This document shows, in pieces, positions 2,565-64,000 of a DNA stretch of 64,000 nucleotides (the first letter of the stretch is position 1; each line of letters begins with the position of its first letter). A program made the translations under genes and the position numbers. Origin of the DNA: Candidatus Marinacidobacterales bacterium. Lineage in GTDB: Bacteria > Acidobacteriota > Vicinamibacteria > Marinacidobacterales > DATDRI01. The stretch is taken from positions 4,512,001-4,576,000 of the forward strand of contig OZ245365.1 of the NCBI GenBank assembly GCA_965226495.1, in the 5' to 3' direction. A model generated the notes under the pieces. The model did no database searches, was not told where the DNA came from, and saw only the letters and a program-made list of their open reading frames with translations.

Positions 2565-2607
2565 TAGGCTGTTTAGTAGCCATGCCGATGCATGTCGAGC
2601 ACTGGGA

Positions 2608-2659: not shown

Positions 2660-2674
2660 TAACTTTCCCTCCTA

Positions 2675-2720
2675 CAGCGAGGGATTGACTTTTCGCCCTG
2701 TATACAGCTATTTTCACCAC
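2675..2720 (+). promoter_or_regulatory. Conserved sigma70-like promoter of kinase array (TTGACT-N18-TATTTT)
   Basis: TTGACT at 2685-2690, TATTTT at 2709-2714. Near-identical copies precede the kinase genes at 34417-34457 and 38781-38819 (minus strand). Confidence 0.65.
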
Positions 2721-2745
2721 TACTTGGTTTGCTTCCTTCCTTGAA

Positions 2746-2778
2746 ACCCTCTCCCTCTGGGAGAGGGTAGGGTGAGGG
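2746..2778. repeat. REP-like palindromic element (CCCTCTCCC...GGGAGAGGG-TAGGGTGAGGG)
   Basis: Hairpin accctctccc-tct-gggagagggt plus GGGTGAGGG tail. Other copies at 30122, 30184, 38721 and 55684. Confidence 0.8.
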
Positions 2779-2782
2779 CTAG

Positions 2783-5476
2783 ATGGCACTCTCGGCGGGT
2801 ACGAAGTTAGGACCCTACGAAATTCTTGCGCCGATCGGCGCCGGTGGGATGGGTGAAGTCTACAAAGCCACCGACACACGGCTTGAGCGCACCGTCGCCA
2901 TCAAAGTCCTCCCCTCGCACGTAGCCAGCAACCCCGACGTCCGCGCGCGCTTCGAGCGTGAAGCTCGCGCTGTCTCGAGCTTGAATCATCCCCATATCTG
3001 CACGCTCCATGACATCGGTCACCAAGACGGCGTCGACTTCATCGTCATGGAGCACATCGAGGGCGAAACGCTCGCCGATCGACTGAAGAAAGGCGCGCTT
3101 CCGTTCGACGATGCCCTGCAATACGGCATCGAGATCGCCGACGCGCTCGATAAAGCCCACCGTCAAGGCGTGGTGCACCGGGATCTGAAGCCCGGCAACA
3201 TCATGCTCACGAAGTCCGGAGCCAAGCTCCTCGACTTCGGACTCGCGAAGTTGTCAGTGGCCGGCTCCGGTCCCGATCTGTCGGCGCTCCCCACCGAGCA
3301 AAAATCTCTTACCCAACCAGGCGCCATTTTGGGCACGTTCCAATACATGGCCCCTGAGCAGTTGGAAGGGAAAGAGGCCGACGCCCGAACCGATGTCTTT
3401 GCCTTCGGCGCCGTCCTCTACGAGATGCTGACCGGGCACCGGGCTTTCGAGGGTAAGAGCCAGGCGAGCCTCATTGGAGCGATTCTCAAAGACGAACCCC
3501 CGCCCATCAGCACCGTCCAGACCATGACGCCGCCGGCGTTGGATCACGTGGTCCAACGCTGTCTCGCGAAAGATCCCGACGACCGCTGGCAAACGGCGTC
3601 CGACGTTCTCCACGAGTTGAAGTGGACATCGAAGGAGGGCTCACCGGCAGTAGGTGTAGCGCCAGCCGAGTCGGCGCGCGCGGGCCGCCGAGGCGTGACA
3701 CCGGTCCTCGCCGCATGGCTTGTCGGCGCCATCATGGCCGGCGTAGCCGTGTGGGCTCTGACCAGCCACGCTCCAGATGCTTCTTTGAAGCGTCTATCCG
3801 TCAGCTTGCCCGCGGAAGCACCTTACGCGGGGCCCGGCGGTCATGCTCTGTCTCCGGACGGGACACGTCTGGTTTACGGCGCGGTGGTTGGTGGCAGACG
3901 GCAGCTTTATACTCGCGCCCTCGACCGATTCGATCCCCAGCTGATGCCGGGTACGGAAGACGCTGCCACTGTTTTCTTCTCCCCGGATGGAGAGTGGGTG
4001 GGATTTGTTACACAGCCCGAAAACAAATTGAAGAAAGTGTCCGTGCACGGAGGCCCGCCGTTGACTCTATGCGACGCGATATTTCTTGGGGGTTCTTGGG
4101 GTGCCGAGGATGCCATCGTTTTCGTGGCCCAGTCGGGTGGCGGTCTGAGCTTGGCCCGTGTCTCGGCTTCCGGAGGCGAGCCCGAGGTACTCACGACGCC
4201 GGATATCGCGAAAGGCGAGCGCCATGGATGGCCGCAGATTCTGCCCGGGGGCGAGGCAGTGCTCTTCTCCATCACGAGCGGCAGCTTCAATGTGGGCCAG
4301 ATTGCGGTCCTCTCTCTGGAAACGGGCGAGTACCGTACCGTCGTGGAACCAGGATACAACGCCCAATATGTGCCTTCGGGTCACATCGTCTATACCGTTG
4401 GGGGAGCTCTGATGGCGGCGCCGTTCGACGTGGATGGGCTCGAAACCACGGGCGCGCCGGGCCCCGTCTTGGAGGGGATACTAACGAATCCGGGTTTGGG
4501 TGGAACCAGTTTCGCCTTTTCTCGAGATGGATCCCTCGCATACGTACCAGGAGGTAGTACCCCAGTAGCAGCGGCTACCTTGGCGTTGGTCGATCGTGAA
4601 GGAGTAGCCAGTCCCTTAGTCGAAGCGCCGCGGTTTTATACACTTCCTCGTTTCTCACCCGATGGCCAACGGGTAGCCGTCACGATACGAGTTGAGGGAG
4701 ATCGAGACATCTGGATTTATGAGTTGGCGCGAGGCACGTTGACCCGTCTGACGTTCGAGGGCGGCGCCTATGGCGTGTGGTCCCCTGACGGTCTACAAGT
4801 GGCCTTTGGTTTGGGGCGGGCAGCAGGCGGTCCCGTTTCCGATATTCTTGCAAAACCCGCCGATGGTAGTGGCGAAGCGGCCCAGCTGACACCGGCCGAA
4901 AACAACAATGGCCTGAGTCCTGCCTCCTGGTCCCCCGATGGCGAGGTCCTGGTCTTCGCGCACTTGACGGGAGGAGGGGCTGGGGACATCGGGGTACTTC
5001 CGCTGGGGGGAGAGCCTAAGCCAGAGCTTGTCCTTCAGGCGACCTTCCGGGAATCTCACCCGAAGCTGTCACCGGACGGGCGGTGGCTCGCCTACACCTC
5101 GGATGAGTCGGGTCAGCCGGAAGTTTATGTGCAACCCTTTCCCGACCTTGTTGGCAAGTGGCAGATTTCGACCGGAGGGGGGACGGAACCCGTGTGGTCA
5201 CCCAAAGGGGCAGAGCTTTTCTATCGGACCGGCGACCAGATGATGGTGGTCCAGTACGGAACGGAGCCGACATTCAGTCCGTCCAAACCGATTGTATTGT
5301 TCGAGGGAAGCTATGCGCCGCATTCTGTGAACCGAGCTGCCAATTACGACGTCTCTCCCGACGGCCAGCACTTCGTCATGGTCCAGCCCGTCCAGGGTAC
5401 GTCGGCCATGACCGAAATCAACGTCGTCCTCAATTGGTTCGAAGAGCTCGAACGGCTCGTTCCCACCGATAACTAA
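2783..5476 (+). CDS. Ser/Thr protein kinase-TM-TolB/PD40-like beta-propeller (array gene 1)
   Basis: [21 protein letters not shown] and APE motifs, a hydrophobic segment, multiple SPDG repeats, C-terminal VVLNWFEEL. Confidence 0.95.
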   Translation: MALSAGTKLGPYEILAPIGAGGMGEVYKATDTRLERTVAIKVLPSHVASNPDVRARFEREARAVSSLNHPHICTLHDIGHQDGVDFIVMEHIEGETLADRLKKGALPFDDALQYGIEIADALDKAHRQGVVHRDLKPGNIMLTKSGAKLLDFGLAKLSVAGSGPDLSALPTEQKSLTQPGAILGTFQYMAPEQLEGKEADARTDVFAFGAVLYEMLTGHRAFEGKSQASLIGAILKDEPPPISTVQTMTPPALDHVVQRCLAKDPDDRWQTASDVLHELKWTSKEGSPAVGVAPAESARAGRRGVTPVLAAWLVGAIMAGVAVWALTSHAPDASLKRLSVSLPAEAPYAGPGGHALSPDGTRLVYGAVVGGRRQLYTRALDRFDPQLMPGTEDAATVFFSPDGEWVGFVTQPENKLKKVSVHGGPPLTLCDAIFLGGSWGAEDAIVFVAQSGGGLSLARVSASGGEPEVLTTPDIAKGERHGWPQILPGGEAVLFSITSGSFNVGQIAVLSLETGEYRTVVEPGYNAQYVPSGHIVYTVGGALMAAPFDVDGLETTGAPGPVLEGILTNPGLGGTSFAFSRDGSLAYVPGGSTPVAAATLALVDREGVASPLVEAPRFYTLPRFSPDGQRVAVTIRVEGDRDIWIYELARGTLTRLTFEGGAYGVWSPDGLQVAFGLGRAAGGPVSDILAKPADGSGEAAQLTPAENNNGLSPASWSPDGEVLVFAHLTGGGAGDIGVLPLGGEPKPELVLQATFRESHPKLSPDGRWLAYTSDESGQPEVYVQPFPDLVGKWQISTGGGTEPVWSPKGAELFYRTGDQMMVVQYGTEPTFSPSKPIVLFEGSYAPHSVNRAANYDVSPDGQHFVMVQPVQGTSAMTEINVVLNWFEELERLVPTDN

Positions 5477-5477
5477 G

Positions 5478-8144
5478 ATGGCACTCGCCGCGGGCACGCA
5501 ATTAGGGCCTTACGAGATCCTCTCCCCCATCGGTGCGGGTGGGATGGGAGAAGTCTACCGCGCTCTCGATCCCAAGCTCGGTCGCGAAGTCGCGATCAAG
5601 ATCCTTCCCACCGAAGTCGTGCAAGCTCCTGAGCGTCTCGCCCGCTTTCGCAGGGAAGCTCGGGTGTTGGCATCGCTGAACCATCCCCACATCGCCGCCA
5701 TTCATGGTCTCGAGGAAGCCGGAGGCCGGCCTTTCCTCGTGCTCGAGTTGGTGGACGGCGAAGACCTCTCGGAGAGGATAAAGCGAGGCGCGGTACCGGT
5801 AGATGAAGCCCTCGAAATCGCACGCCAAGTCGCGCAAGCACTCGAAGAAGCGCACGAAAAAGGAATCGTGCACCGAGACCTGAAGCCTGCCAACATTGCC
5901 GTGACCCCCGATGGCAAAGTCAAAGTGTTGGACTTCGGATTGGCCAAGGCCTACGAAGGAGATACTGGGGAAGTATCCGCGGAGCTTTCGCAATCTCCAA
6001 CCCTCTCCCGCCCCGCGACGGCCACGGGAGTGATTCTCGGCACCGCCGCTTACATGTCCCCCGAGCAAGCGCGGGGCAAGAAGGTGGACCAACGCGCCGA
6101 CATTTGGGCTTTCGGGGTGGTCTTGTACGAGATGCTCTCGGGGCGTCCTCTCTTCATCGGCGAGACGGTGTCCGACGTTCTGGCCGGCGTCCTGCGCGCC
6201 GAGCCTGATTGGAGTGCGTTACCCGCCGAAATGCCGACCTCCATCCGACGGCTCCTGCAGCGCTGCTTGAAGCGGGATCCGAAAACACGACTTCGACACG
6301 CTGGCGATGTTTTGCTCGAGATCGATGATGCCCCAGAAACTGCAGCGAAAGTGGAAGACGCGGCCCCGCCCTCGGCGCTACGTCAGGCGCTGCCGTGGGT
6401 AGTAGCGCTGGCTTTGCTTCTCCTCGGCGTTGGGCTGGGGAAATTGGTAAGCGACCGTGTGCGGGGACAGGAACGCGTCGTGCGCGCGGAAATTCCTCCG
6501 CCGGAAGGAACGAATTTCCATTTGCACCACGGGAGTCCCGGTCCGGCCGTTCTCTCGCCGGACGGACGGAAGATAGCATTCTCGGCGATTGGCGCCGATG
6601 GCACGGTCCGTCTCTACGTCCGGCCGCTCGACTCCGACGATGCCAACGTACTCGAAGGAACCGAAGGTGCCGAGTATCCTTTTTGGTCGCCCGACAGCTT
6701 GTCGATCGCTTTCTTTGCGAACGGGAAGCTCAATCGAATCGACGTCACTGGGGGTGCCCCCGTGCCCCTTTGTGATGCACGGTGGGGCAACGGCGGAAGT
6801 TGGGGACCCGACGGGGTGATCGTTTTCGCCCCGGACATTCTGACACCTATTCACCGAGTTTCTGCGGACGGAGGTGACTCCGTCCCGATAACCAAGCTAA
6901 ATGTCGACCGCGGCGACAACTCCCATCGCCACCCGCGGTTCTTGCCCGATGGCCGGCACTTTCTGTACTTGGCAAGAGTCCCCGGCAAGAACTTCGAAGA
7001 CAGCTGGGTGATGGTGGGTTCCGTGGATGGCAGTGTAGAGAAACCATTGCTGAACTCATCGGCCGCGGCGGCGTATGCCTCTGGGCGCCTGCTTTTTATG
7101 CGCGGAAGTGTTCTCATGGCTCAACGATTCGATCCCGCGCGGCTCAAGCTCGAAGGAAATGCGGCACCGGTTGCGCGCGATGTTCGCACAATCGCAGGCA
7201 ACGCGTACGCCGTTTTTTCCGCCGACCATGGGTCAACACTTCTCTACCAAACAGGAACGGGGAGTATCGACCGCAACCTGGAATGGTTCACCCGAGATGG
7301 AAGTAAAGTCGCGTCGTTGGGTGATGGCGCCATTTACTTTTACGTCGCCCTCTCGCCGGACGCTGCGCTTGCCGCAGTGATGATCGGAGACCCCAGTACC
7401 GGAACCCCGGACCTCTGGGTGTACGAAATCGACCGCAATCTCAGAACGCCAATCACCTTGGACCCGGGTCAGGACATCGGACCCGTTTGGCATCCCGACG
7501 GACTGGCGCTAGCGTTCGGCTCCAATCGAAAGGGACCGTACAACCTTTACCGAACAACCGTTTTTGAATCGAGCGAACCAGAGCTTCTTTTCGAATCGGA
7601 GGAGAACAAACTACCGACGAGTTGGTCGCCCGATGGAAAGTTGCTTGCCTTCGGGCGCCAAGGTGCAGAAACCGGGTGGGATATTTGGATCTTGCCGTTG
7701 ACGGACGACGGCGAGCCCTATAGTTTTATCCAAACGCGCTTTCAAGAAACGTGGGGCATGTTCTCGCCGGATGGGCGCTGGATGGCCTACGTTAGTGACA
7801 AGTCCGGACAACAAGAAGTATACGTCACGCCCTTCCCGGGGCCGGGCCGCAAACGGCAGCTCTCGACCGACGGAGGAGCTTCGCCTGTGTGGCGTCAGGA
7901 TGGTCAGGAGATCTTTTATCAAGGTCTGGACGCCAAAATTCGGGCCGTGGCTGTCCGTCCCCAGGGTGACGTGCTCGAGCTTGGACAAGTAACGACGCTA
8001 TTTGAAACGATGCCATCTGGCCCCGCGCGTATCTTCTCACCAACCCCCGATGCAACGAAGTTTTTGGTCATCACTCAGGGTGAAGCACCACCCCCTGGCC
8101 CCCTCAAGCTAGTAACCAATTGGACCGCGGAGCTCGACCAATGA
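5478..8144 (+). CDS. Ser/Thr protein kinase-TM-beta-propeller (array gene 2; different kinase subtype)
   Basis: HRDLKPAN, DFG, SPE. Kinase subtype LGREVAIKILP...ERLARFRREARVLASLNHPHI. SPDG repeats. Confidence 0.95.
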   Translation: MALAAGTQLGPYEILSPIGAGGMGEVYRALDPKLGREVAIKILPTEVVQAPERLARFRREARVLASLNHPHIAAIHGLEEAGGRPFLVLELVDGEDLSERIKRGAVPVDEALEIARQVAQALEEAHEKGIVHRDLKPANIAVTPDGKVKVLDFGLAKAYEGDTGEVSAELSQSPTLSRPATATGVILGTAAYMSPEQARGKKVDQRADIWAFGVVLYEMLSGRPLFIGETVSDVLAGVLRAEPDWSALPAEMPTSIRRLLQRCLKRDPKTRLRHAGDVLLEIDDAPETAAKVEDAAPPSALRQALPWVVALALLLLGVGLGKLVSDRVRGQERVVRAEIPPPEGTNFHLHHGSPGPAVLSPDGRKIAFSAIGADGTVRLYVRPLDSDDANVLEGTEGAEYPFWSPDSLSIAFFANGKLNRIDVTGGAPVPLCDARWGNGGSWGPDGVIVFAPDILTPIHRVSADGGDSVPITKLNVDRGDNSHRHPRFLPDGRHFLYLARVPGKNFEDSWVMVGSVDGSVEKPLLNSSAAAAYASGRLLFMRGSVLMAQRFDPARLKLEGNAAPVARDVRTIAGNAYAVFSADHGSTLLYQTGTGSIDRNLEWFTRDGSKVASLGDGAIYFYVALSPDAALAAVMIGDPSTGTPDLWVYEIDRNLRTPITLDPGQDIGPVWHPDGLALAFGSNRKGPYNLYRTTVFESSEPELLFESEENKLPTSWSPDGKLLAFGRQGAETGWDIWILPLTDDGEPYSFIQTRFQETWGMFSPDGRWMAYVSDKSGQQEVYVTPFPGPGRKRQLSTDGGASPVWRQDGQEIFYQGLDAKIRAVAVRPQGDVLELGQVTTLFETMPSGPARIFSPTPDATKFLVITQGEAPPPGPLKLVTNWTAELDQ

Positions 8145-10836
8145 CCATCGCGTCGGGAACCAAGCTGGGTCCTTACGAAATCGTCGGGGCCATTGGCGCC
8201 GGCGGCATGGGCGAAGTCTACAAGGCCACCGACACGCGGCTCGAGCGCACGGTGGCCATCAAAGTTCTCCCCTCTCACGTTTCTAACAACCCTCAGGTTC
8301 GAGAGCGCTTCGACCGCGAAGCCCGCACGATCTCCAAGCTAAACCATCCCCACATCTGCACGTTGCACGACGTCGGCCGGGAAAACGGCGTGGACTTCCT
8401 AGTGATGGAGCATATCGAGGGGGAAACCCTCGCCGAGCGATTGGAGAAAGGTGCGCTTCCGCTCGAGCAAGCACTGCAGCACGGGATTGAAATCGCCGAC
8501 GCCCTCGACAAAGCGCACCGTCAAGGCGTCGTCCACCGGGACCTGAAACCCGGCAACATCATGCTCACGAAGTCCGGAGCGAAGCTGCTGGACTTTGGCC
8601 TTGCCAAGATGTCGGCCCCCGGCTCGGGACCGGATTTATCCTCGCTTCCTACAGAGCAGAAGTCTCTTACCCAGCCCGGAGCCATCTTAGGAACGTTTCA
8701 GTACATGGCGCCCGAGCAGCTCGAAGGCAAAGAGGCCGACGCGCGAACCGACATCTTCGCCTTCGGCGCAGTGGCCTACGAAATGGTAACCGGACGCCGG
8801 GCATTCGAAGGCAAGAGCCAGGCCAGCCTCATTGGAGCGATTCTCAAAGACAATCCTCCGCCTCTATCGACCCTTCAATCGATGTCTCCGCCGTTGCTGG
8901 ATCACGTGATCCGAAGATGTCTAGCCAAGGAGCCCGACGATCGCTGGCAAGCGGCTTCGGACGTGATGCGGGAGCTGAAGTGGATCGGCGAAGCCGGAGA
9001 GGCACCCGTAGAAACGACCGCCGTGACTCGGCCCTCGGCCCTACGTCGAATGCTGCCCTGGTTGGCGGCGCTCGGCTTGCTTTTTGTCGGTGCAGGACTA
9101 GGAAAATGGACGACGGACCCGTCGCGGAGGCCGGAGCGCGTTGTCCGTTCTGTCATTCCGCCGCCGGAAGGAGCGACGTTCCATTTACATCACACAGGCC
9201 CCGGCCCTGCCGTTCTCTCACCGGACGGCCGGAACGTCGCATTCTCGGCACGAGACGCCGGTGGTGCGGTGCGTCTCTATGTCCGCCCGCTCGACTCCGA
9301 CGACGCCCGGGTCCTCGTAGGGACGGAAGGCGCACAGTATCCTTTCTGGTCGCCCAACAGCGCGTCCATCGGCTTTTTTGCAAACGAACAGCTCATGAGA
9401 ATCGACGTCGCCGGGGGAGCGCCTATGACCGTTTCTAGAGCTTTCGACGGGAAGGGCGGAAGCTGGGGACCCGGCGGGCAGATCCTGTTTGCGCCTAACT
9501 CTCGGACACCGATTCATTACGTATCTGAGGTTGGAGGCGAATCCATCGCTATTACCGAGTTCAATGACGAGCGGGGAGAAGACTCCCATCGCCACCCTCG
9601 TTTCTTACCCGACGGCCGCCGGTTTTTGTATCTGGCGCGGATTCCCGGCAACAACTTTGAAAACAGTGCCGTCATGGTGGGCTCGTTGGACGATGGTGAA
9701 GATGAGCTGCTCCTTCGTTCAGCCGCCGCGGCGGCACACGTCTCTGGACATCTCCTCTTCGTGAGGGCCGGCACTCTCTTGGCTCAGCGGTTTGACCCGG
9801 CGCGGCTCGAGCTCACAGGAGATGCGGTTCCGATTGCGGAAGACGTTCGGCTAATCTCGGGCAATGCATACGCAGTCTACTCTGCGCAAGAGAAAACCCT
9901 TCTCTACCAAAGAGGCCAGGAGAGTATCGGTGGCAGGTTGGAATGGTTCGTCCGAGACGGGAGTAGTCTCGGCTACCTAGGGGATCGCGCTATTTATGGA
10001 CATGTTTCCATCTCGCCTGACGGTGAGCACGCCGCTGTCGTGATCGGCGACATGAATAGTGCATCCTTTGATGTATGGGTTTACGAAATCGCCCGCAATC
10101 TCCCAACCCGGGTTACCTTTGACCCGCGTGCAGAGCACGCACCCGTTTGGCACCCCGATGGTACATCCTTGGCGTTCGCCTCCAATCGAAAGGGGCCATT
10201 CAACCTCTACCGCAAGAGCGTTTTCGAATCGAGCGAATCAGAGCTTCTGCTGGAATCGGAGACGGCTAAGTTTCCGACGAGTTGGTCCCCCGACGGACAG
10301 TTGCTTGCCTTCGACCAATCAACCGACGAGACACGGGGCGATCTATGGGTCTTGCCGCTGGCGGGCGACCGTCAGCCTTATAGCTTTATCCAAACGCGTT
10401 TCCAAGAAACGACAGGCACGTTTTCACCGGATGGAAATTGGACGCAGGCACGTTTTCACCGGATGGAAATTGGATGGCCTACGTTAGTGACAAGTCCGGA
10501 CAACAGGAAGTGTACGTCACGTCATTCCCGGAGCCAGGACGAAGTTGGCGGATCTCGACCGATGGAGGAGACTGGCCTGCCTGGCGGCAAGATGGTCAGG
10601 AGATCCTCTATACAGACCACGACGGCCGGGTTCGGTCCGTGGCCGTTCGTCCACAGGACGGGACACTCGAGGTCGGAGAAGCAACTCCGCTGTTCGGAAT
10701 AACGCGAACGCGATTCGGCCGTGTCTTTTGGCCAACGTCTGACGCAACCAAGTTCTTGGTCATAACCCAGGGCGACGCGCCACCCCCTGGCCCACTCAAG
10801 CTAGTGACTAATTGGACCGCGGAGCTCGAGCAATGA
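8141..10836 (+). CDS. Ser/Thr protein kinase-TM-beta-propeller (array gene 3); apparent frameshift at ~10443 from a 32-bp duplication
   Basis: ATG overlaps the gene 2 stop (ATGA). ORF 10438-10836 supplies a C-terminus homologous to gene 2 ([18 protein letters not shown]). Confidence 0.9.
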
Positions 10837-13569
10837 CGATCGCCTCGGGAACCAAGCTCGGGCCGTACGAAGTTCTCGAACCCATTGGCGCCGGTGGAAT
10901 GGGCGAAGTCTACAAAGCCACCGACACGCGACTCGATCGCACCGTCGCCATCAAGGTCCTCCCCTCATGCCCGCTTCGCCATCAAGGTCCTCCCCTCACA
11001 TGTATCCGACCACCCGCAGGTCCGGGAGCGATTCGAGCGCGAGGCGCGCACGATTTCCCAATTGAACCATCCCCACATCTGTACTTTGCATGACGTCGGT
11101 CGGGAGAACGGCGTCGACTTCTTGGTGATGGAGCACATCGAGGGAGATACGCTCGCGGACCGCATCGGCAAGGGCGCGCTTCCTTTGGACCAAGCGCTCC
11201 AGTACGGGATCGAAATCGCTGACGCGTTAGACAAGGCCCATCGTCAAGGCGTTGTTCACCGGGACCTCAAACCCGGCAACGTCATGCTGACAAAATCGGG
11301 TGCTAAGCTCTTGGATTTCGGACTGGCCAAGACAGGTATGGCGGTCGCGGGATCCGATGTCTCGGAGTTGGCTACGGAGGCAAGGCCCCTCACCGAACAA
11401 GGAACCATTCTGGGAACCCTGCAGTACATGGCCCCCGAACAGCTAGAGGGAAAAGACGCCGACGCGCGCACCGACATCTTTGCCCTTGGTGGCGTGGTTT
11501 ACGAGATGGTGACAGGGCGCCGAGCATTCGAAGGAAAGAGCCCGGCTAGTGTCATCGGGGCGATTCTCAGAGACGACCCTCCACCTTTATCGACCGTTCA
11601 GCCGATGACTCCTCCGCTGTTAGACCACGTGATCCGAAGATGTCTGGCCAAGGCGCCCGACGATCGCTGGCAGACGGCATCGGATGTAATGCTGGAGTTG
11701 AAATGGCTCGCCGAAGGCGGGGTTTCTTCCGGAATCTCAGCTCCTGAGCCGGTACCGCGGACGCGCCATCAAAAAACGTTCGCGACGCTGGCTGCACTGT
11801 TCTTCGTCACGACCGTGGTTCTTGGGCTCGCCTACTACCGGAGCGTCCAGGAAACACCACCAGTGATTCGGGCCATCGTTCCTCCTCCTGACGGAACTCG
11901 CTATTTGTCCACCGCTCTAGCCGGATTCGTGGGTGCCGGTCCCGTGGCGCTCTCTCCGGATGGAAGCCAGTTGGCCTTCGTCGCAAGAGGAAAAGGCGAA
12001 GACGTCCTATGGGTACGCGCTCTTGATTCCTTGACCGCGCGACCCCTCCCCGGCACCGAGGGGGCTCGCTACCCATTCTGGTCGCCCGACGGGAGCATGA
12101 TCGGCTTCGATGCAGACGGCAAGCTAAAAAAAATTGATTTAGACGGCGGACCTCCAGTGACCATTTGTACGACCGATCAATCGCGCGGCGCAAGTTGGAG
12201 CCGAAAAGGCGTCATCGTCTTCACGCCATGGGTCCGAAATCCTTTGTTTCAGGTGTCGGAAAACGGAGGTGAGCCGGTTCAGCTCACGGAACTCGACTCG
12301 GCGCGGGGAGAAACCAGTCACCGTTGGCCTTATTTCCTTCCCAACGGTAACCACTTTCTGTATTTTGCCCGGATCGGCAGTGGAGAGGACGCAGTGGTCA
12401 GCAACGCCGTCATGCTGGGCTCACTGGATGGCAAGACGAGCAAATTGCTGCTGAACGCAGACGGTAACGCTGCGTACGGAGCGGGCCACCTACTATTCAT
12501 GAGAGAAAACATTCTCATGGGGCAACGCCTCGAACTCGACAATCTCCGGCTGACGGGCAGCCCCTTCCCTATCGTGCAAGAAGTCGAGTTCGATCCTCCC
12601 TACTCGAGGGGTGTCTTCTCTGTCTCAGAAAACGGTGTCTTGGCTTACCAGGCACGCGATGTCGCGGCGGAAACTTCGACCCTTGTTTGGTTCGACCGAG
12701 ACGGCAAGCAACTCGGGTCGCTTGGAGAGCCCGACCTCTATTTCGGACCTCAGATTTCGTCTGACGGAAAAAAGGTTGTGGCGGGCGTGGGAGTTGGTCT
12801 TTCGGACCTGTGGATCTTTGATGTGGCGCGGCCTGTTCCGACGCGGTTCACGCTTCATAGGGCGGCTAATAAAGAACCGGTTTGGTCGCCTGACGGAACT
12901 CGTATTGCATTCTCCTCCAACCAGAATCCAGAGGGGAAACCACCAACCGCCTCCAACATCTTTGTTAAGCCCGTGGCTGGCTCTGGTGATCTGGAACCGC
13001 TGATTGAGGGCGAATTCCCCAAGTATCCTCACAGCTGGTCGCCGGATGGTCGTTTTTTCGCCTACACGGCCCTTAGGGAGAACACAAAGTCGGACATTCT
13101 AATCCTACCGCTGTTCGGTGACAGAAAGACTTTTGACTACCTTGCGACCCCCGAGAGCGAGGGAGGAGGCGAATTCTCTCCCGACGGACGATGGTTCGCC
13201 TACAACGCCGAACACGCGGGACGGTGGGAAGTCTACGTCGCATCCTTCCCCAAGCCGGAGCTCAAAACCCGGATCTCGACGGGCGGGGGTTGGCAACCCA
13301 CTTGGAGAGGAGACGGGCGGGAGATTTTCTACATTGCCAACGATGGTCAATTGATGGCTGTGGCAATCGACCAGGATAGCGAGTCTCTAGAGGTTGGCCG
13401 CACGAAGGCTTTGTTCCCGACGCAAACGACCAGAACTTTTGAACCGAGGTTCGGAGCCTACGATGTCTCGAACGACGGTCAGAGATTTCTAGTGAACACG
13501 TTGGTCGAGACGCCAAGGGTGGCCGCGATTACTTTGGTGACTAATTGGACGGCGGAGTTTGAGCAATGA
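10833..13569 (+). CDS. Ser/Thr protein kinase-TM-beta-propeller (array gene 4); apparent frameshift at ~10968 from a 31-bp insertion/duplication
   Basis: N-terminus [14 protein letters not shown]...VAIKVLPS is in one frame and the remainder is in ORF 10885-13569. tcgccatcaaggtcctcccctca is duplicated. Confidence 0.9.
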
Positions 13570-16247
13570 CTCTTAGCGCCGGCGCCAAGCTGGGACCTTA
13601 CGAAATTCTCGAGCCCATCGGCGCGGGTGGAATGGGCGAAGTCTACAAAGCCACCGACACGCGGCTCGAGCGCACGGTCGCCATCAAGGTCCTTCCCTCT
13701 CACGTCTCCGACCACCCGCAGGTCCGGGAACGATTCGAGCGCGAGGCCCGCACGATCTCTCAATTGAACCATCCCCACATCTGCACGTTGCACGATGTCG
13801 GCCGAGAAAACGGCGTCGACTTCCTGGTGATGGAGCACATCGAGGGAGAGACCGTGGCGGAGCGATTACAGAAGGGTCCGTTGCCGGTCGAAGAGGCCTT
13901 GAAACACGCCATCGAGATTGCCGACGCACTCGACAAGGCGCATCGCCAGGGCGTGGTACACCGCGACCTCAAGCCCGGCAACATCATGCTCACGAAGTCC
14001 GGCGCGAAGCTCCTGGATTTTGGACTCGCCAAGACGGGAGTTGCTGGCTCCGGGCCGGACCTCTCCGGTGTGGCAACCGAGGCGCAGCCCCTCACCGAGC
14101 AAGGAGCCATCCTTGGGACCTTTCAATACATGGCGCCCGAGCAGCTCGAAGGCAAGGAGGCCGATGCACGGACCGACATCTTCGCCTTTGGTGCGGTTCT
14201 CTACGAAACGTTAACTGGCCAAAGAGCCTTCCACGGCAAGAGCCAGGCGAGTCTGATCACATCGATCATGGGAAGTGAGCCATCCGCCATCTCGTCTATC
14301 CAGTCCATGACGCCGCCGTTGCTGGATCACGTGGTGAAGCGTTGTCTCGCCAAGGATCCCGACGAGCGTTGGCAATCTGCGTCCGATGTGATGCGGGAGC
14401 TGAAGTGGATTACAGGGGAAGGCTCGAGCACGACGGTGCTGCCATCCGCAAAGGCTCGCTCGCGGCCCGCCCATTGGATTGCCATCGGCTTCGCCGCCGG
14501 CGCGATACTGGCGGGACTCGGGGTTTGGAGCCTTGTCGACCCGGACCCGCCGCCCGCCGTGCCTCGGCACCTGTCCATCAACCTGCCCGCCGAAGCCCCG
14601 TATCAATCCGATCGCCTTCACGCACTCTCACCCGACGGGACGCAGCTTGCGTACGTTGCTGCTACGGAAGATGGTTTGCGACTCTACATACGCTCCTTGG
14701 ACCAGCTCGATGTCACGCCTTTAGCCGGAACCGAGAATGCCGCTGGTCCTTTCTTCTCCCCGGACGGCGAGTGGGTGGGTTTTTTTGAATGGCCCGGCGG
14801 GAAGTTAAAAAAAATCAACGTCCGCGGAGGTCCTCCGATGACCCTGTCCGATACGCCGGCCCTATTGGGTGCGTCGTGGGCCGAGGACGATCACATCGTC
14901 TTCGCCGGAGCACCGAGTGAATCGGGAGTCGGCCTGTATCGGGTTCCTGCGAGGGGAGGCACTCCAGAGGTCCTTACGACGCCGGATCTCGCAAGCGGCG
15001 AGACCATGCATCGCTGGCCACAAGTTCTACCGGGTGAGAAGGCCATCCTCTTCACGGTCACGGGTGGTGGAAGCAACGCGGACCGCATTGCGGTTCTTTC
15101 GCTGGAAACGGGCGAGTACCGGACCGTGATCGAGGCGGGCTATTACGGGAAATACGTACCCACCGGCCACATCGTTTACGCTCTGGGCGGAACGTTAATG
15201 GCAGCCCCCTTCAATCTGGCGAAACTCCAAATAACGGGTCCTCCCGCCCCGGTGCTTCAGGGCGTCCGTGACAATTCCGGATTCGCCTTGGCCAATTTCG
15301 ATTTCTCGGAGGACGGATCCCTGGTCTACCTTCCTGACACGGCGGCCGGACGGGCGACTCTGGTCGCGGTCGACCGTACGGGAGGAGAGGTCCAGGCGCT
15401 CGTGGCAGAACCGCTCGAGAATCCTCGAGGCATCCGGGTTTCACCCGATGGTCGGCGGTTGGCGCTCATTACTGGTTCAGGGGGGGATGTTGGAGACCTC
15501 TGGGTCTATCCTCTCGATGGCCGTCCTCCGACTCGCTTGACATTCGCTGGAAGTGACGGCACGCCCGTTTGGGTGCAGGACGGCAGCCAAATCGCTTTTT
15601 CCTCGACGCGAGAGGACGGAAGAAACCTTTACAAGATCCCATCCGACGGAAGCAACCTCGAGCCGGAGCTACTGCTAAAGAGTCCACACGTCAAATATCT
15701 TCGGGCATGGTCCCAACAGACGGAGGAGCTGATCTTCGATCAGGGCGGCCCGGGCGACATTATGACGATTCCGATTGAAGGTGAGCACGAGCCGCGGGCT
15801 TTGGTAACGGGGAAGGATTCAGAGGGTTTGAGCTCGCTTTCATCCGATGGTCGATGGCTCGCCTACGTGTCGATGGTGACGGGTCGTTACGAGGTGTGGG
15901 TGCGGCCGTACCCGGGGCCAGGTGCGCCGACAAGAATCTCGCCCAACGGTGGGTTGGAGCCGGTATGGGGACCCGGCGATGAGGAGCTCTTTTACCTAGA
16001 GGGCGGTAACAAGATAATGGCCGTGAAAATCTTCCTTGAACCAGAGCTCCGGTTCGAGGCTCCCAAAATGTTGTTCGAGGGGCCGTACTCGCACAACGTC
16101 GCTGTTGCGCCCACGTACGACGTCGGACCCGACGGCCGGTTCATTATGGCCAAGCCCATCGGTGGTGACGAGTCAGAACGCCGCGAATTTGTCATGATCC
16201 TCAATTGGTTCGAGGAATTGAAGAAGCTCGTACCCACGGATAACTGA
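13566..16247 (+). CDS. Ser/Thr protein kinase-TM-beta-propeller (array gene 5)
   Basis: Intact kinase motifs, TM segment, SPDG repeats, ATGA overlap with gene 4. Confidence 0.95.
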   Translation: MTLSAGAKLGPYEILEPIGAGGMGEVYKATDTRLERTVAIKVLPSHVSDHPQVRERFEREARTISQLNHPHICTLHDVGRENGVDFLVMEHIEGETVAERLQKGPLPVEEALKHAIEIADALDKAHRQGVVHRDLKPGNIMLTKSGAKLLDFGLAKTGVAGSGPDLSGVATEAQPLTEQGAILGTFQYMAPEQLEGKEADARTDIFAFGAVLYETLTGQRAFHGKSQASLITSIMGSEPSAISSIQSMTPPLLDHVVKRCLAKDPDERWQSASDVMRELKWITGEGSSTTVLPSAKARSRPAHWIAIGFAAGAILAGLGVWSLVDPDPPPAVPRHLSINLPAEAPYQSDRLHALSPDGTQLAYVAATEDGLRLYIRSLDQLDVTPLAGTENAAGPFFSPDGEWVGFFEWPGGKLKKINVRGGPPMTLSDTPALLGASWAEDDHIVFAGAPSESGVGLYRVPARGGTPEVLTTPDLASGETMHRWPQVLPGEKAILFTVTGGGSNADRIAVLSLETGEYRTVIEAGYYGKYVPTGHIVYALGGTLMAAPFNLAKLQITGPPAPVLQGVRDNSGFALANFDFSEDGSLVYLPDTAAGRATLVAVDRTGGEVQALVAEPLENPRGIRVSPDGRRLALITGSGGDVGDLWVYPLDGRPPTRLTFAGSDGTPVWVQDGSQIAFSSTREDGRNLYKIPSDGSNLEPELLLKSPHVKYLRAWSQQTEELIFDQGGPGDIMTIPIEGEHEPRALVTGKDSEGLSSLSSDGRWLAYVSMVTGRYEVWVRPYPGPGAPTRISPNGGLEPVWGPGDEELFYLEGGNKIMAVKIFLEPELRFEAPKMLFEGPYSHNVAVAPTYDVGPDGRFIMAKPIGGDESERREFVMILNWFEELKKLVPTDN

Positions 16248-16248
16248 T

Positions 16249-18918
16249 ATGCCACTTGCCGCCGACACGCAGTTGGGGCCGTACAAGATCCTCTCGTCTA
16301 TCGGGGCAGGTGGCATGGGCGAAGTCTACAAAGCCACCGACACGCGACTCGATCGCATCGTCGCCATCAAGGTTCTCCCCTCTCACGTATCTGACCACCC
16401 ACAGGTCCGGGAGCGATTCGAGCGGGAGGCCCGCACCATCTCTCAACTAAACCATCCCCACATCTGTACGTTGCACGACGTCGGCCGAGAAAACGGCATC
16501 GATTTTCTGGTGATGGAGCACATCGAGGGCGAAACACTCGCCGACCGCATCGGCAAGGGCGCGCTGCCTCTGGATCAAGCACTGCAGTACGGGATCGAGA
16601 TCGCGGACGCGCTCGACAAGGCGCATCGTCAAGGCGTGGTGCATCGTGATCTAAAGCCCGGCAACATCATGCTCACGAAGTCGGGCGCGAAGCTCCTGGA
16701 TTTTGGGCTCGCCAAGACCGGAGTCGCCGGCTCCGGTCCGGACCTCTCCGGTGTGGCGACCGAGGCGCAGCCCCTCACCGCACAAGGAGCCATCCTCGGA
16801 ACATTTCAATACATGGCGCCCGAGCAGCTCGAAGGCAAGGAAGCCGACGCGCGGACCGACATCTTCGCGTTCGGTGCGGTCCTTTATGAAATGTTGACCG
16901 GGCAGAGGGCGTTTCACGGCAAGAGCCAGGCGAGTCTGATCGGCTCGATTCTCAAGGACGAACCCCCGCCCATCAGCACCGTCCAGGCGATGACGCCGCC
17001 GGCGCTGGATCACGTGATCCGCAGGTGCATGGCCAAGGAACCGGAAGAGCGTTGGCAGGCGGCGTCGGACGTCATGCGGGAGCTCAAATGGGTCACGGGG
17101 GAGGGCTCGAGCGCCGCGGTGCTCCCCGCGGGAAGAACACAGTCGCGGCTCGTTCCTGTACTGGCTATCGGGATCGTCGTCGGTGCGTTGGTGGCGGGTC
17201 TCGCTGTTTGGGCAATAGTGGGGTCCGACCCGGCCGAGCCAACTCGGCGATTGTCTATCAATCTGCCCGCTCCGCTTGGCTGGGGATTCGCCATGTCTCC
17301 CGACGGGACACGGCTTGTGTATGGGGCCTCGTCTGGCGGTGGCAGGCAACTCCACGTCCGCTCCCTCGACCAGCTCGATGTCACGCCGCTAGCCGGGACC
17401 GAAAATGCTGCCCAGCCATTCTTCTCTCCGGACGGAGAGTGGGTGGGGTTCATTGAATACCCCGAAGCCAAATTGAAAAAAGTCTCCGTCCACGGTGGCG
17501 CAGCACCCATGACTCTGTGCGAAACCTCCGCCCCGAGCGGCGCATCCTGGGCCACTGACGGTTACATTATCTTTGCGAAAGAGGCCGACGAGGGTTACGG
17601 GCTGTTTCGTGTTCCAGCACGAGGCGGCGTGCCTGAGGCCCTTACGACGCCCGACACCGCCAACAACGAGCTTTACCACAGGTACCCACAGGTTCTACCA
17701 AATGGCAACGATGTCCTTTTCACCATCACGGGCGGTGGCACCAACCCTGACCGGATCGCGGTTCTTTCGCTGGACTCCGGCGAATACCGCACCGTGGTTG
17801 AAACGGGTTACTACGGGAGGTATGTACCTAGCGGTCACATCATCTATGCCGTAGGCGGGACGCTCATGGCGGTTCCGTTCGATCTCGGAAGTCTCGAGGC
17901 GACCGGTTTTGCGGCCCCGGTGCTGGAGAACGTTTTCCACACTCGCGGGTTCAGCAGGGCATCTTTCGATTTCTCCCAGGACGGGACCCTAATCTACCTC
18001 TCGGGGTCGACGCCCGATCCGGCAACCCTGGTGTCGGTCGATCGTGACGGGAGAGAGCTTGGGGCGTTCGTTGAGGAACCGCTCGAGAATCCTCGCGGGA
18101 TTCGCCTTTCTCCGGATGGTCGGCGAGTCGTCCTGGTCTCGGGCCAGGGGAATGACGCCGGGGATCTATGGGTCTACGACCGAGACGGCCGTCCGCCCAT
18201 TCGTTTGACGTTCGATGGTAGCAACAGCCGACCCGTTTGGATTCTAGACGGCACACGAATCGCATTTTCATCGACGCGCACCGGCTCCCTCGATCTCTTC
18301 TCGATCCCCGCCGATGGCAGTAACTCCGACCCCGAGCTTCTCTTCACAAGTCAAGACGCTAAGCACGCACGAACCTGGTCGCCCCAGACCGGGGAGCTCC
18401 TCTTCGACCATGTCCTCCCCGATACCATCTCCGACATCTTCGCGATCCCGGTCGAAGGGGAGCGCGAACCCAAAGCTGTTGTCCAGGGGAAACCGATCGA
18501 AGGCCTGAGCTCGCTTTCCTCCGACGGTCGATGGCTCGCCTATGTGTCGACCCTGACAGGCGGCGGTTTCGAGGTGTGGGTGAGACCGTATCCCGGCCCG
18601 GGTACCGCTACGCGGGTTTCACGCGACGGAGGTGAGCAGCCGGTCTGGGGGCCGGGTGATGAGGAACTGTACTATCTTGAGGGGAACAAAATGATGGCGG
18701 CGAAGTTTCATACCGAACCGAATTTTCGGTTCGAAGCGCCGGCAGCGTTATTCGAAGGGGGGTACTCGCACATCCTTCAAGCTGCACCCACCTACGACGT
18801 AGGCCCCGACGGACTGTTCGTGATGGCGAAGCCCACCGGCGGGGAGGAATCAGGAAGGGAGCTCGTCGTCGTTCTCAACTGGTTCGAGGAGCTCGAACGG
18901 CTAGTCCCTACCAAGTAG
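16249..18918 (+). CDS. Ser/Thr protein kinase-TM-beta-propeller (array gene 6)
   Basis: Intact kinase motifs, TM segment, SPDG repeats. Propeller closely related to gene 5. Confidence 0.95.
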   Translation: MPLAADTQLGPYKILSSIGAGGMGEVYKATDTRLDRIVAIKVLPSHVSDHPQVRERFEREARTISQLNHPHICTLHDVGRENGIDFLVMEHIEGETLADRIGKGALPLDQALQYGIEIADALDKAHRQGVVHRDLKPGNIMLTKSGAKLLDFGLAKTGVAGSGPDLSGVATEAQPLTAQGAILGTFQYMAPEQLEGKEADARTDIFAFGAVLYEMLTGQRAFHGKSQASLIGSILKDEPPPISTVQAMTPPALDHVIRRCMAKEPEERWQAASDVMRELKWVTGEGSSAAVLPAGRTQSRLVPVLAIGIVVGALVAGLAVWAIVGSDPAEPTRRLSINLPAPLGWGFAMSPDGTRLVYGASSGGGRQLHVRSLDQLDVTPLAGTENAAQPFFSPDGEWVGFIEYPEAKLKKVSVHGGAAPMTLCETSAPSGASWATDGYIIFAKEADEGYGLFRVPARGGVPEALTTPDTANNELYHRYPQVLPNGNDVLFTITGGGTNPDRIAVLSLDSGEYRTVVETGYYGRYVPSGHIIYAVGGTLMAVPFDLGSLEATGFAAPVLENVFHTRGFSRASFDFSQDGTLIYLSGSTPDPATLVSVDRDGRELGAFVEEPLENPRGIRLSPDGRRVVLVSGQGNDAGDLWVYDRDGRPPIRLTFDGSNSRPVWILDGTRIAFSSTRTGSLDLFSIPADGSNSDPELLFTSQDAKHARTWSPQTGELLFDHVLPDTISDIFAIPVEGEREPKAVVQGKPIEGLSSLSSDGRWLAYVSTLTGGGFEVWVRPYPGPGTATRVSRDGGEQPVWGPGDEELYYLEGNKMMAAKFHTEPNFRFEAPAALFEGGYSHILQAAPTYDVGPDGLFVMAKPTGGEESGRELVVVLNWFEELERLVPTK

Positions 18919-18922
18919 AGCT

Positions 18923-19282
18923 CTACGACTTCTTCACTCCGTAGGCCTTCAGCAGTCTCCCGATCTGAGTACGGCTCACGGGAAGCACGCGGTTCACCGG
19001 AGGCTCAAGCTTGAGCTCCCAGTCCTCTCCTTTGCGTCGCCGCCGGATCTCTCGGATCCGTCCCAGGTTGACGCCATGGTTGTGGTGCACGCGGAGGAAT
19101 CCGTGAGGTGCAAAGAAAGGGAAAACCTCACCCAGAGAGCGAACGTCCCGGAGCCTTCGGGCGCGCCGGGTGCGTACCAGGGTCTCGTCTCCCACCGCCT
19201 CGAGAAAGTACACATCGGCGGGGTCGATGGGCACCCGTCGGTACTCGGAAAGGTGGAGGAGGACGCGCTCGATTCGAGCCAT
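18923..19282 (-). CDS. Stand-alone LytTR DNA-binding domain protein
   Basis: 119 aa with DVYFLEA...FLRVHHNHGVNL...LPVSR, matching the LytTR pattern (F.RvHrsyiVN...lpVSR). Confidence 0.85.
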   Translation of the reverse strand: MARIERVLLHLSEYRRVPIDPADVYFLEAVGDETLVRTRRARRLRDVRSLGEVFPFFAPHGFLRVHHNHGVNLGRIREIRRRRKGEDWELKLEPPVNRVLPVSRTQIGRLLKAYGVKKS

Positions 19283-40405: not shown

Positions 40406-42982
40406 AGCCTGATTCTTGGAAGCGTGTTGCAGCCCTGCTCGAAGCGGCACTCGAGCGCCCTTCCGACGCGCGGACTGCGTTCTTGGACGAGGCTTGTTCC
40501 GGGCACGATGCGCTGCGAGAGAAGGTCGAAAAGCTCTTGGCCAATCATGAAGAGGCGGAAGAGAACCGGTTTCTCGCCCAGGCTCCCGCTTCCTTACTCG
40601 CAAAGCAAAAAAGCACCGAGATCACACCTGGCGCTCGTTTCGGCTCCTACGAGATCACTTCCCTGCTCGGCGTGGGTGGGATGGGTGAGGTTTACCGAGC
40701 GAAGGATCTCGAGCTCGGGCGCGACGTGGCGATCAAGGTGCTCCGCAAGGAGCTCGCTTCGGAGCCAGAGGGCCTGAAGCGCTTCGAACGAGAGGCCCGG
40801 ACCGCATCCGCGCTCAACCACCCGAATATCACCACCATTTACCACATCGGTGAACACGAGGGCACCCGCTACATCGTAATGGAGTACGTCGAGGGCAAGA
40901 CACTTCGGGAACTTCTTGGCGAGGGTCCGCTCCCCTCTAAGACCTTGCTCCGACTCGCCACCCAAATCGCCGAGGGCCTGGACAAGGCTCACTCCGCGAG
41001 GATCGTCCATCGGGATCTCAAACCGGAGAATCTGATGGTCACCGGCGACGGCTTGGTGAAGATTCTGGACTTTGGGCTGGCCAAGCTGACGGGTCCGCCG
41101 GTGAAATTAAATTCCGACATGGACACCGTGACCAAGGTGGGCACGCGGCAAGGCACGATTCTAGGAACGGTGCAATACATGTCACCGGAACAGGCGAGCG
41201 GACGCGCTGTGGACTATCGCTCCGATCAGTTTTCCTTGGGATTGATTCTGTATGAAATGGCGACGGGGAAGGTGGCGTTTCAGCGGGACACCGCGGCCGC
41301 GACGCTGGCGGCCATCATCGAGGGGAAACTCGAAACCGATGACGCCACTCGAACCGAGCCTTGCGGGGAGTTTCCGACGGACGGTGGAGCGGTGTCTGGT
41401 GAAGGAGCCGGAAGGTCGTTACGCCTCGACGGGTGAATTAGCGAAGGAGCTGGAGCAGGCACGGGATGGTGTCCGCGGGGTCGGTGTGTGGCTGCGACGG
41501 AGCGCGATGCTCGCCATGGTGGGCTTGTTTGCAGCGCTTGTCGCCATAGTGGGTCTGAATGTGGGTGAGATCCGAGACCGACTTCTGGGTGGGACGGGTG
41601 GAATTCAGTCGGTCGCGGTTCTACCTCTGAGGAACGTCTCGGGGGATCCGGAGCAGGAGTATTTTTCCGACGGGATGACCGAGGCACTGATTTCCGATCT
41701 CGCAAAGATCGGAGCACTGAAGGTCATCTCGAGAACCTCGGCGATGCGCTACAAAGGCACGGAAAAGACTCTGCCGGAGATTGCCCGTGAGCTGAATGTG
41801 GACGCCGTGCTGGAGGGCTCGGTTTTATTGGAAGGAGAACGGGTGCGGATCACGGCGCAGCTCATCGAGGCAGAAACGGACCAGAATCTGTGGGCGGATA
41901 ATTACGAACGTGACCTCCGCGACATCATGTCGGTGCAAGGCGAGGTGGCGCGGGCCATCGCTCAGGCGATCCAAATCCAACTGACGCCGGAGGAGACCGC
42001 TCGCTTGGCGAGCGCCCGTCCGGTGGACCCCGAGGCTCACGAGAACTATCTCAAGGGCGTTTTTCACTATCAAAAACTCACTCCCCCGGACCTCGATGCC
42101 GCGCTTTCCTACTTCGAGCTCGCCTTGGAGAAAGACCCGGACTACGCCCTGGCCTATGTGGGTATCGCCCGTGTCTGGGGTGGACGCCAGCAGATGGGCT
42201 TCGTGCCGGCCAGTGAGGCGACGCCACTCCAGAAGGTAGCCGTTCTCAAAGCCCTGGAGCTGGATGACTCCCTCGCCGAAGCTCATAGCGCGTTAGCGTC
42301 ACTGAAGACGTGGAGCGAGTGGGATTGGTCAACTGCCGAGAGCGAGTTCCGGCGCGCCATCGAACTCAACCCCAGCTATCCGGAAGTGCGCGTGTGGTAC
42401 TGGGAGCTCTTGGATTCAACGGGGCGTTGGGAGGAAGGGATGGCGCAGATGGAGCGACTTCTGGAATTGGACCCGCACAATTCCTTGTTCCAGGGTTTCT
42501 TTGGTCAGAGCTTGGTATTTCGGCGCCGGTATGATGACGCCATCGCGCAGTTGCAGAAGGTCATCAGAACGGAACCCAACTTGCAGTTAGCGCACGCCCT
42601 CCTCTGGCGCGCCTTCCACCAAAAGCGAATGTATGAGGAGGCTCTAGCAGAAGCGAAGAAGGTTTTTGCCCTGCTGGGCTATAGTGAAGTCGCGGAAGCC
42701 CTGGATCGCGGCTACGCGCAGGGTGGGTATGCAGGGGCAATGCGCCTTGCGGCGGAGACGCTGGCGGCGCGTTCGAAGCGAACCTATGTTCAGGCTATGC
42801 AGATTGCAAAACTCTATGCGCACGCCGGGGAGAAAGACCGAGCCCTGGATTGGCTGGAGAAAGCCTACCAGGAGCGCGAGAGCCGACTGGTTTATCTCGG
42901 TGTGGTTCCGGAATGGGACCCCCTGCGGGACGACCCGCGCTTCCAGGATCTGCTGCGGCGCATGAACCTCCCGGAGGGATGA
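40402..42982 (+). CDS. Ser/Thr kinase (helical N-extension)-TM-TolB-N-like-TPR; apparent +1 frameshift at ~41333
   Basis: Kinase motifs in ORF 40402-41436. [22 protein letters not shown] and TPRs in ORF 41252-42982. One extra A relative to the paralogue at ~43710. Confidence 0.88.
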
Positions 42983-63999: not shown

Positions 64000-64000
64000 A

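Follow-up and report, generated by a model that had tools for sequence, protein, structure and literature searches.

A 64,000-nucleotide stretch of the Candidatus Marinacidobacterales bacterium assembly GCA_965226495.1 (contig OZ245365.1, positions 4,512,001 to 4,576,000; hereafter, the window) carries six co-directional genes on the + strand, K1 to K6 (2783-18918), that lie head to tail and encode receptor serine/threonine kinases of the Hanks type, each joined to a beta-propeller sensor. We conclude with considerable confidence that this array consists of six old, distinct members of a kinase-propeller family of about 40 in the genome, that their kinase heads and sensors have separate histories, and that modules and genes have been exchanged. 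What goes beyond a routine description of such genes is the evidence of recombination between heads and sensors, together with a difference in gene number at the same locus among congeners: six kinase genes here, one in a same-genus genome (G002) and none in another (G001).

Architecture of the array proteins

The order of domains reported for this array in a preliminary description of the DNA, kinase, transmembrane helix and propeller, was confirmed. Pfam scans found a kinase domain (Pkinase, PF00069) in all six proteins, with E values of 4e-38 to 4e-52 and scores of 132-178 bits against a cut-off of 31.7, and PD40 repeats likewise in all six (E 1e-16 to 4e-30, above the Pfam cut-offs); the four intact genes examined (K1, K2, K5 and K6) each encode one hydrophobic segment at residue ~302-326. 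The glycine-rich loop, the VAIK lysine and the HRD, DFG and APE motifs are all present in K1-K8, K7 and K8 being dispersed paralogues in the same window, when K3 and K4 are read without two short tandem duplications that are treated below. The kinase is predicted to be cytoplasmic and the propeller periplasmic, given the absence of a signal peptide and the basic residues that precede the transmembrane helix. Once the duplications are removed the six proteins measure 887-901 aa, in agreement with the ~890 aa first given, whereas K3 and K4 are broken as deposited.

2783..5476, +: K1, receptor Ser/Thr kinase, 897 aa; kinase 1-290, transmembrane helix ~308-326, double propeller ~333-896
5478..8144, +: K2, array architecture, 888 aa; head from the other major kinase clade, propeller 67 % identical to that of K3
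8141..10836, +: K3, array architecture, 887 aa without the duplication; 32-bp tandem duplication at 10413-10444 breaks the frame
10833..13569, +: K4, array architecture, 901 aa without the duplication; 31-bp tandem duplication (10945-10975) breaks the frame at the VAIK motif
13566..16247, +: K5, array architecture, 893 aa; ectodomain modelled as two six-bladed propellers
16249..18918, +: K6, array architecture, 889 aa; alone in the array in having a counterpart at the same position in a congener (G002)
17308..18416, +: K6 sensor tract, 1.1 kb, ~99 % identical to the G002 gene; synonymous divergence (dS) 0.014, compared with 0.48-0.64 in flanking genes

Spacing inside the array ranges from -4 to +1 nt, with 1-nt gaps at the K1/K2 and K5/K6 junctions and ATGA overlaps at K2/K3, K3/K4 and K4/K5 in the frames read without the duplications; the tight coupling noted earlier is real. 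Because stop and start codons overlap head to tail, the six genes are probably transcribed and translated jointly.

A profile built from 98 homologous ectodomain sequences matched S9-peptidase propellers in its first half and the TolB propeller (E 3e-27) in its second. The AlphaFold2 model of the K5 ectodomain is all-beta (pLDDT 93.2, pTM 0.90), and its strands make up 12 four-stranded blades, six per propeller. The best Foldseek matches to this model were the tandem double propellers of LRP6 E1E2, LRP2 and Aip1 (E ~1e-14, TM-score ~0.3). In LRP6 and LRP2 such double propellers serve as extracellular ligand-binding modules, but with 10-12 % sequence identity, YWTD blades and EGF linkers on their side the resemblance is one of fold only.

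Among solved structures the nearest kinase is Mycobacterium tuberculosis PknB (E 6e-51), with PknE, PknA and StkP also among the closest. An N-terminal Hanks kinase, a single transmembrane helix and an extracytoplasmic beta-propeller make up the PknD-type layout, which the array proteins share, and their kinases are homologous to the PknB/PknD group. No array protein tested reaches the NCBIfam equivalog cut-off for PknB-PASTA, PknD or TolB: the PknD model NF009651 scored 162 and 141 bits, with 839 required (E 1e-47, kinase part only), the TolB model TIGR02800 gave 81 and 117 bits against 343 (E 7e-23 to 1e-33, propeller part only), and the PASTA-kinase model NF033483 gave 279-305 bits against 450 (kinase domain only); a Pfam scan of the array proteins found no PASTA repeats. 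PknD differs from them in being a single gene with a sensor that is reportedly a single six-bladed NHL propeller, whereas the array sensors are two six-bladed PD40/TolB-like propellers in a family of ~40 members that occurs in arrays. TolB, in turn, is periplasmic, as the sensors are predicted to be, and has a six-bladed PD40 propeller that the second sensor propeller matches, but the array proteins have neither its N-terminal domain nor its signal peptide, and their two propellers are linked through the membrane to a kinase. The array thus encodes ordinary, uncharacterised receptor Ser/Thr kinases that stand nearest to PknD in layout and nearest to TolB in sensor sequence, and that are members of neither.

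Separate histories of heads and sensors

The kinase halves had been described as highly conserved, which holds for five genes, the kinase domains of K1 and K3-K6 being 76-85 % identical in amino acids, and fails for K2, which is 46-48 % identical to the other five. The propellers diverge as described, at 31-67 % identity (K2-K3 67 %, K5-K6 65 %, remaining pairs 31-48 %). We built separate kinase and propeller trees for 32 paralogues by quick LG+G4 searches. K2 is placed in the other major clade of the kinase tree, while in the propeller tree it joins K3 (support 100) and then K4. A second conflict involves K7, K8 and the paralogues g4667 and g206, which form one kinase clade but split in the propeller tree into K7+g4667, together with K5+K6, and K8+g206. 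Approximately unbiased (AU) tests of the other domain's groupings gave p values of 1e-36, 3e-4, 4e-70 and 6e-66; K2+K3 is rejected as a clade on the kinase data (p 1e-36), as are the kinase clades on the propeller data (p 4e-70 and 6e-66). Because the kinase and propeller trees conflict so strongly, they indicate that head and sensor have separate histories and that modules have been exchanged. In the alignment the K2/K3 switch maps to the end of the kinase domain, and the juxtamembrane and transmembrane segments of K2 and K3 are already alike.

The locus itself can be followed in the two same-genus genomes through its flanking genes, for a BNR-repeat protein, a DJ-1 protein and an SSF symporter, which are 90-94 % identical between species (dS 0.48-0.64). 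Only 177 bp separate the DJ-1 and BNR genes of G001, with no kinase. In G002 the DJ-1/BNR locus holds its one kinase gene between 47 nt that match the sequence upstream of K1 and 515 nt that match the sequence downstream of K6 (94.6 %), with the DJ-1 and SSF genes next. Over 271 codons the head of this gene is 92 % identical to K1 in amino acids, and it clusters with K1 in the tree (96 in the Shimodaira-Hasegawa-like approximate likelihood ratio test, SH-aLRT). The remainder of the gene, aligned over 3.2 kb at 89.3 % DNA identity and with 10 gap openings, is K6. Loss of 13.5 kb through a crossover between the K1 and K6 heads would yield exactly the G002 gene; the event may also have run in reverse, as an insertion. 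Within K6, codons 354-722 (17308-18416) differ from the G002 gene by 13 substitutions and two one-base insertions (dS 0.014); dS is 1.14 for the head and 0.35 for the tail outside this tract. The tract reflects either a recent exchange between lineages or a draft-genome artefact.

Most sensors of the array are hard to match elsewhere. Five genomes from the genus and family yielded no match above ~50 % identity to the ectodomains of K1, K2, K4 and K5, and none at all at E 1e-120 to those of K2 and K4; the best K2-type sensor found elsewhere, 52 % identical, belongs to another family, in a tally of 301 genomes of the class that takes in the unpublished genomes G244 and G007. Unlike the array sensors, the dispersed kinases keep clear orthologue pairs with G002. 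The locus is recombination-prone.

Age, selection and competing explanations

Pairwise Nei-Gojobori (NG86) estimates among paralogues gave dS values of 0.8-1.6 and ratios of nonsynonymous to synonymous divergence (omega) of 0.08-0.15 for kinase pairs without K2. The K2-K3 propellers had a dS of 0.94 and an omega of 0.23, the K5-K6 propellers 1.4 and 0.18, and the K7-K8 kinases 0.54 and 0.16; the K7-K8 propellers were saturated. Because paralogue dS is at least 0.8 and that of the flanking orthologues is 0.48-0.64, all duplications within the array are older than the split between congeners, and the array genes are old paralogues. In-place duplication after speciation is ruled out by this excess of paralogue over orthologue dS, and recent gene conversion among array members by a longest exact match of 43 nt together with a kinase dS of at least 0.8. 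We also considered targeted hypervariation, for example by a diversity-generating retroelement, and rejected it: no reverse transcriptase was found among the open reading frames (ORFs) scanned, exact sharing does not exceed 43 nt, and the paralogues are old. The array is not the product of recent in-place duplication plus diversifying selection.

Sequence variation in the sensors is concentrated on one side. When loops were classed by strand order in the DSSP string of the K5 model and column entropy was computed over the 98-sequence alignment, mean entropy was 1.24 in AB loops, which hold an SPDG turn, 2.06 in CD loops, 2.91 in BC loops and 2.68 in DA loops, compared with 1.9-2.3 in strands. 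The BC+DA face is far more variable than the AB+CD face (2.78 versus 1.71; Mann-Whitney p 3e-17), and the bias is present in both propellers; divergence is not uniform over the propeller. In propellers the 'top' face, where ligands usually bind, is made up of the BC and DA loops, and loop variability of this kind is a common pattern of propeller families. The bias fits different specificities and does not show positive selection.

The preliminary description had read the array as a co-expressed, diversifying bank of sensors, its propellers under positive selection and its kinases sharing one signalling output, like the receptor-like kinase clusters of plants. We consider this unlikely, although several observations fit it: the ATGA overlaps and 1-nt gaps that connect the genes, five of six heads at 76-85 % identity beside propellers at 31-67 %, the variation gathered in the loops of one face, the lack of congener orthologues for five of the six sensors, and an ectodomain omega 3-8 times that of the kinase (0.20-0.59 versus 0.07-0.10) in three orthologue pairs of dispersed kinases compared with G002. 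A further candidate pair, g2304/G2i, turned out not to be orthologous in the ectodomain (47 % identity) and was excluded from these omega values. Yet omega stays below 1 wherever it is measurable (kinase 0.07-0.15, ectodomain 0.14-0.59), dS is saturated in most propeller pairs, and the paralogues predate the species split, making the sensors old types and not recent variants. Nor is the output expected to be uniform, with K2 carrying a head of the other major clade. The plant comparison stands as an analogy of genome organisation, and nothing further of it does.

Less probable again is that the propellers are TolB-like anchors docking the kinases to a constant envelope partner, such as peptidoglycan or Pal-like or outer-membrane proteins, with paralogues serving localisation. 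The match of the C-terminal propeller to TolB would suit such a role, as would the conservation of the structural core and one face over the 98 homologues. The other face, however, is highly variable among paralogues, most sensor pairs are 31-48 % identical, which is unexpected with a constant partner, and the proteins lack the N-terminal domain of TolB and fall short of the equivalog cut-offs.

The remaining alternatives concern the integrity of the sequence. The K3 and K4 frames are closed in the deposited sequence, where the ORF list gives 8120-10702 and 10885-13569 instead. The 32-bp duplication of K3 sits inside a PD40 blade, and the 31-bp duplication of K4 falls exactly at the VAIK motif, cutting the glycine loop off from the rest of the kinase by a frameshift; leaving the duplicated bases out makes both genes open and full length. 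Upstream of K1, a small ORF on the minus strand contains a third tandem duplication, 130 bp and exact, at 2281-2410. Twenty public runs from seven studies contain 7000-14500, 15 of the 20 holding at least half of its sampled words, and contigs from four runs (X1-X4) of four studies were compared over 2000-19500, with coverage scored at >=95 % identity. In contigs of all four runs the sequence runs on without the 32 bases of K3, and in contigs of three without the 130-bp duplication, while a joint that skips the 31 bases in K4 is found for X2 only (one of four) among the matches listed. None of the four runs carries any of the duplications among the matches listed, contigs being evidence of presence and not of absence. 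Across the genome we counted 75 exact, near-complete tandem duplications (periods 20-400 bp), three of them within these 9 kb, and this number suggests that short exact tandem duplications are a habit of the assembly. The three are most likely artefacts private to it, and they carry a practical warning that short tandem duplications in this assembly break real genes.

Two further genes of the window are split between frames, a kinase-TPR gene (41283-41378) and a GGDEF-PilZ gene (58049-59351). An X2 contig lacks 4 bp of K1 at 4723 and an X3 contig has an extra A at the K4/K5 ATGA overlap (13568), each a low-depth, single-contig variant (depth 5-8), and contigs of X1 and X4 depart from the sequence at 7430, inside the K2 propeller; all three are possible strain-level structural variants.

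We think it improbable that the array is decaying, with K3 and K4 true pseudogenes in the strain and the locus on its way to loss as in the congeners. The frameshifts as deposited, the contig variants at 4723 and 13568, the kinase-free locus of G001 and the indels of the G002 gene would all agree with decay, but the K3 duplication is lacking in four of four runs and the K4 duplication in one of four among the matches listed, the genome-wide tally of duplications suggests an assembly habit, the kinase omega of 0.08-0.15 speaks of long-term constraint, and the variants come from single contigs of low depth. That dispersed paralogues were collapsed or mis-chained in this metagenome-assembled genome (MAG) we hold to be very improbable, in spite of three private duplications within 9 kb, other broken frames in the window and a source genome 94.8 % complete with 3 % contamination, because members whose longest identical stretch of DNA is 43 nt are not easily confused, and independent contigs from the four runs bridge K1/K2, K2/K3, K4/K5 and K5/K6, four of the five junctions, in window order, while multi-kinase arrays recur in many other assemblies, at 45 of 77 related loci and on the same strand in 42 of the 45.

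Our preferred reading, six old and distinct receptors whose heads and sensors have been exchanged, has several points weighing against it in turn. The trees come from quick LG+G4 searches, and the clades put to the AU tests were named after the trees had been seen. The head of the G002 gene has a dS of 0.99 from K1, above the species background, and is not a clean orthologue. G002 is 9 % contaminated and its gene has 10 gap openings relative to K6, and for these reasons the ~99 % K6 tract could be chimeric or a polishing artefact. The two propeller faces were assigned from strand order, not from coordinates, and the conserved SPDG turn inflates the contrast between them. In most propeller pairs dS is saturated or undefined, which makes omega unreliable there, and the orthologue omegas rest on three pairs with just 408-451 ectodomain codons covered, from a draft genome with indels. 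No contig among the rows listed spans the K3/K4 junction. As to co-expression, promoter and terminator scans of the region came out at chance level and the public runs that contain 7000-14500 include no RNA run; as to function, no ligand, substrate or phosphatase is encoded in the window.

Surroundings, family and significance

The remaining features of the window, outside the array, are as follows.

2685..2714, +: candidate sigma-70-like match, TTGACT-18 nt-TATTTT, 9/12 positions, in the sole intergenic gap before the array
2748..2778, +: dispersed 31-nt hairpin/G-rich element, its end 4 nt short of the K1 start codon
18923-19282, -: stand-alone LytTR DNA-binding protein, 119 aa, convergent with K6 and 4 nt from its stop
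19509-20043, +: DUF433 + DUF5615/PIN-like pair of toxin-antitoxin type, between the LytTR and DJ-1 genes; missing there in G001 and G002
31414..34323, -: K7, dispersed paralogue, array architecture, with an N-terminal extension of ~66 aa
35771..38680, -: K8, dispersed paralogue; kinase 86 %, propeller 40 % identical to K7
40621..42982, +: kinase-TPR gene, its frame changing between 41283 and 41378
42994..45597, +: K9, kinase with a multi-transmembrane C-terminal half and without PD40 (Pfam and hydrophobicity)
59702-61258, +: DDE transposase (insertion sequence element), adjoining K10
61462..64000, -: K10, kinase-propeller gene truncated by the window end

The single promoter that had been proposed finds no backing in the scan, which returned that lone 9/12 match before the array and four promoter-like sites in the region compared with 3.4 in shuffles, a chance level. 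The 31-nt element has 31 copies in the genome at up to 4 mismatches, and the single gene of G002 retains the same 47 nt upstream; the element is an unlikely kinase-specific signal, just 3 of the 31 copies preceding kinase-propeller genes (3-15 nt 5' of them). Many metagenome contigs stop at the element and depth spikes there, pointing to a repeat that is widespread in other organisms too. Rfam gave no matches at gathering score in 1-20700. The LytTR protein is 96 % identical to one beside the K6-type gene of G002 and has a 71 % identical paralogue elsewhere in the genome; we rejected it as a general array partner, as it was seen only beside K6 and the G002 gene and not at the other related loci examined. 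Neighbouring genes are housekeeping genes (sucCD, mdh, icd, a dcd-like gene, the symporter and DJ-1). FHA and PP2C genes are absent from the window, and elsewhere in the genome there are 19 FHA and 4 PP2C_2 matches. A stretch of ~66-70 aa before the kinase domain is common to K7 (34126-34323, -), K8 (38483-38680, -), g4667 and g206, and the array genes are without it.

We estimated the size of the family by running our own hidden Markov models (HMMs) on stop-to-stop ORFs of the 6.34-Mb genome, with fragments counted separately. Kinase HMMs matched 97 ORFs, 39 of which have both kinase and propeller domains, and the kinase-propeller family has about 40 members in this genome. The window holds 11 kinase loci, the number first described, where the genome-wide density of 97 kinase ORFs per 6.34 Mb would predict 0.98 (Poisson P 8e-9). 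Other same-strand arrays in the genome comprise 2-4 genes, which makes K1-K6 the largest. The expansion of the family in Acidobacteriota that had been noted is borne out by the relatives: in a tally of 20, which takes in the unpublished G007, two families have at least 45-57 matches per genome, a lower bound, and a third, with small genomes, has 5-8. The named relatives are MAGs of Acidobacteriota (including Ca. Marinacidobacterales, Thermoanaerobaculia, Vicinamibacteria and Terriglobia) and of Ca. Eisenbacteria, and a few record titles give other phyla. Counted as ORFs, so that frameshifted genes may be counted twice, two or more kinases occur at the 45 of 77 related loci mentioned above, at least four at 19 and at least six at 9, with a maximum of eight in 22.7 kb, and in the 42 loci all kinase ORFs lie on a single strand. 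Same-strand kinase arrays are common in Acidobacteriota. Arrays often pair heads of both major clades, as in g2707/g2710 and g3421/g3424 (genome positions 2707503-2712932 and 3421586-3426967) and in K2 beside K1 and K3.

Our literature search found no publication on these acidobacterial arrays and no description of the ligands, substrates or regulatory logic of acidobacterial propeller kinases. The closest parallel comes from Planctomycetota, for which excerpts of PMC11032199 describe an expansion of membrane Ser/Thr kinases that carry WD40 or TPR domains in the periplasm, some of the duplicates lying side by side, and cite tandem kinase duplicates in myxobacteria (Perez et al. 2008). As far as those excerpts go, the likeness lies in a lineage-specific kinome expansion of proteins with a cytoplasmic kinase, a single transmembrane helix and periplasmic repeats or propellers; the differences are the phylum and the sensor type, WD40/TPR versus a PD40 double propeller, and the excerpts contain no mention of overlapping head-to-tail arrays or of head/sensor mosaicism.

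By analogy with PknB and PknD, a ligand in the periplasm may bind the variable propeller face and lead the receptors to dimerise or cluster, after which the Thr-rich activation loop would be autophosphorylated and cytoplasmic targets encoded elsewhere in the genome would be phosphorylated. For PknD, PMC1847690 describes activation driven by dimerisation and phosphorylation of a cytoplasmic regulator. Gain, loss and exchange of sensor modules or entire genes, whether among paralogues or across related species, would proceed through homology supplied by the conserved head.

Acidobacteriota are abundant in soils and sediments, and propeller-sensor Ser/Thr kinases make up a large share of their signalling genes. 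The array offers a compact case, with six distinct sensors, two head types and natural variants of six, one and no genes in close relatives, and the locus is suited to asking what the sensors bind and whether the head mediates cassette exchange. We raise tentatively, as a possibility somewhat less likely than not, that the kinase head is a portable recombination handle for inserting, deleting and swapping sensor cassettes, each a transmembrane helix with its double propeller, among the ~40 paralogues and between species. If this were true, the difference in gene number among congeners, the G002 gene with its K1 head and K6 tail, and the ~99 % identical K6 tract would be snapshots of such shuffling, and each species would build its own row of co-translated receptors, so that recombination-driven shuffling of sensors, and not a static gene family, would underlie these kinases.

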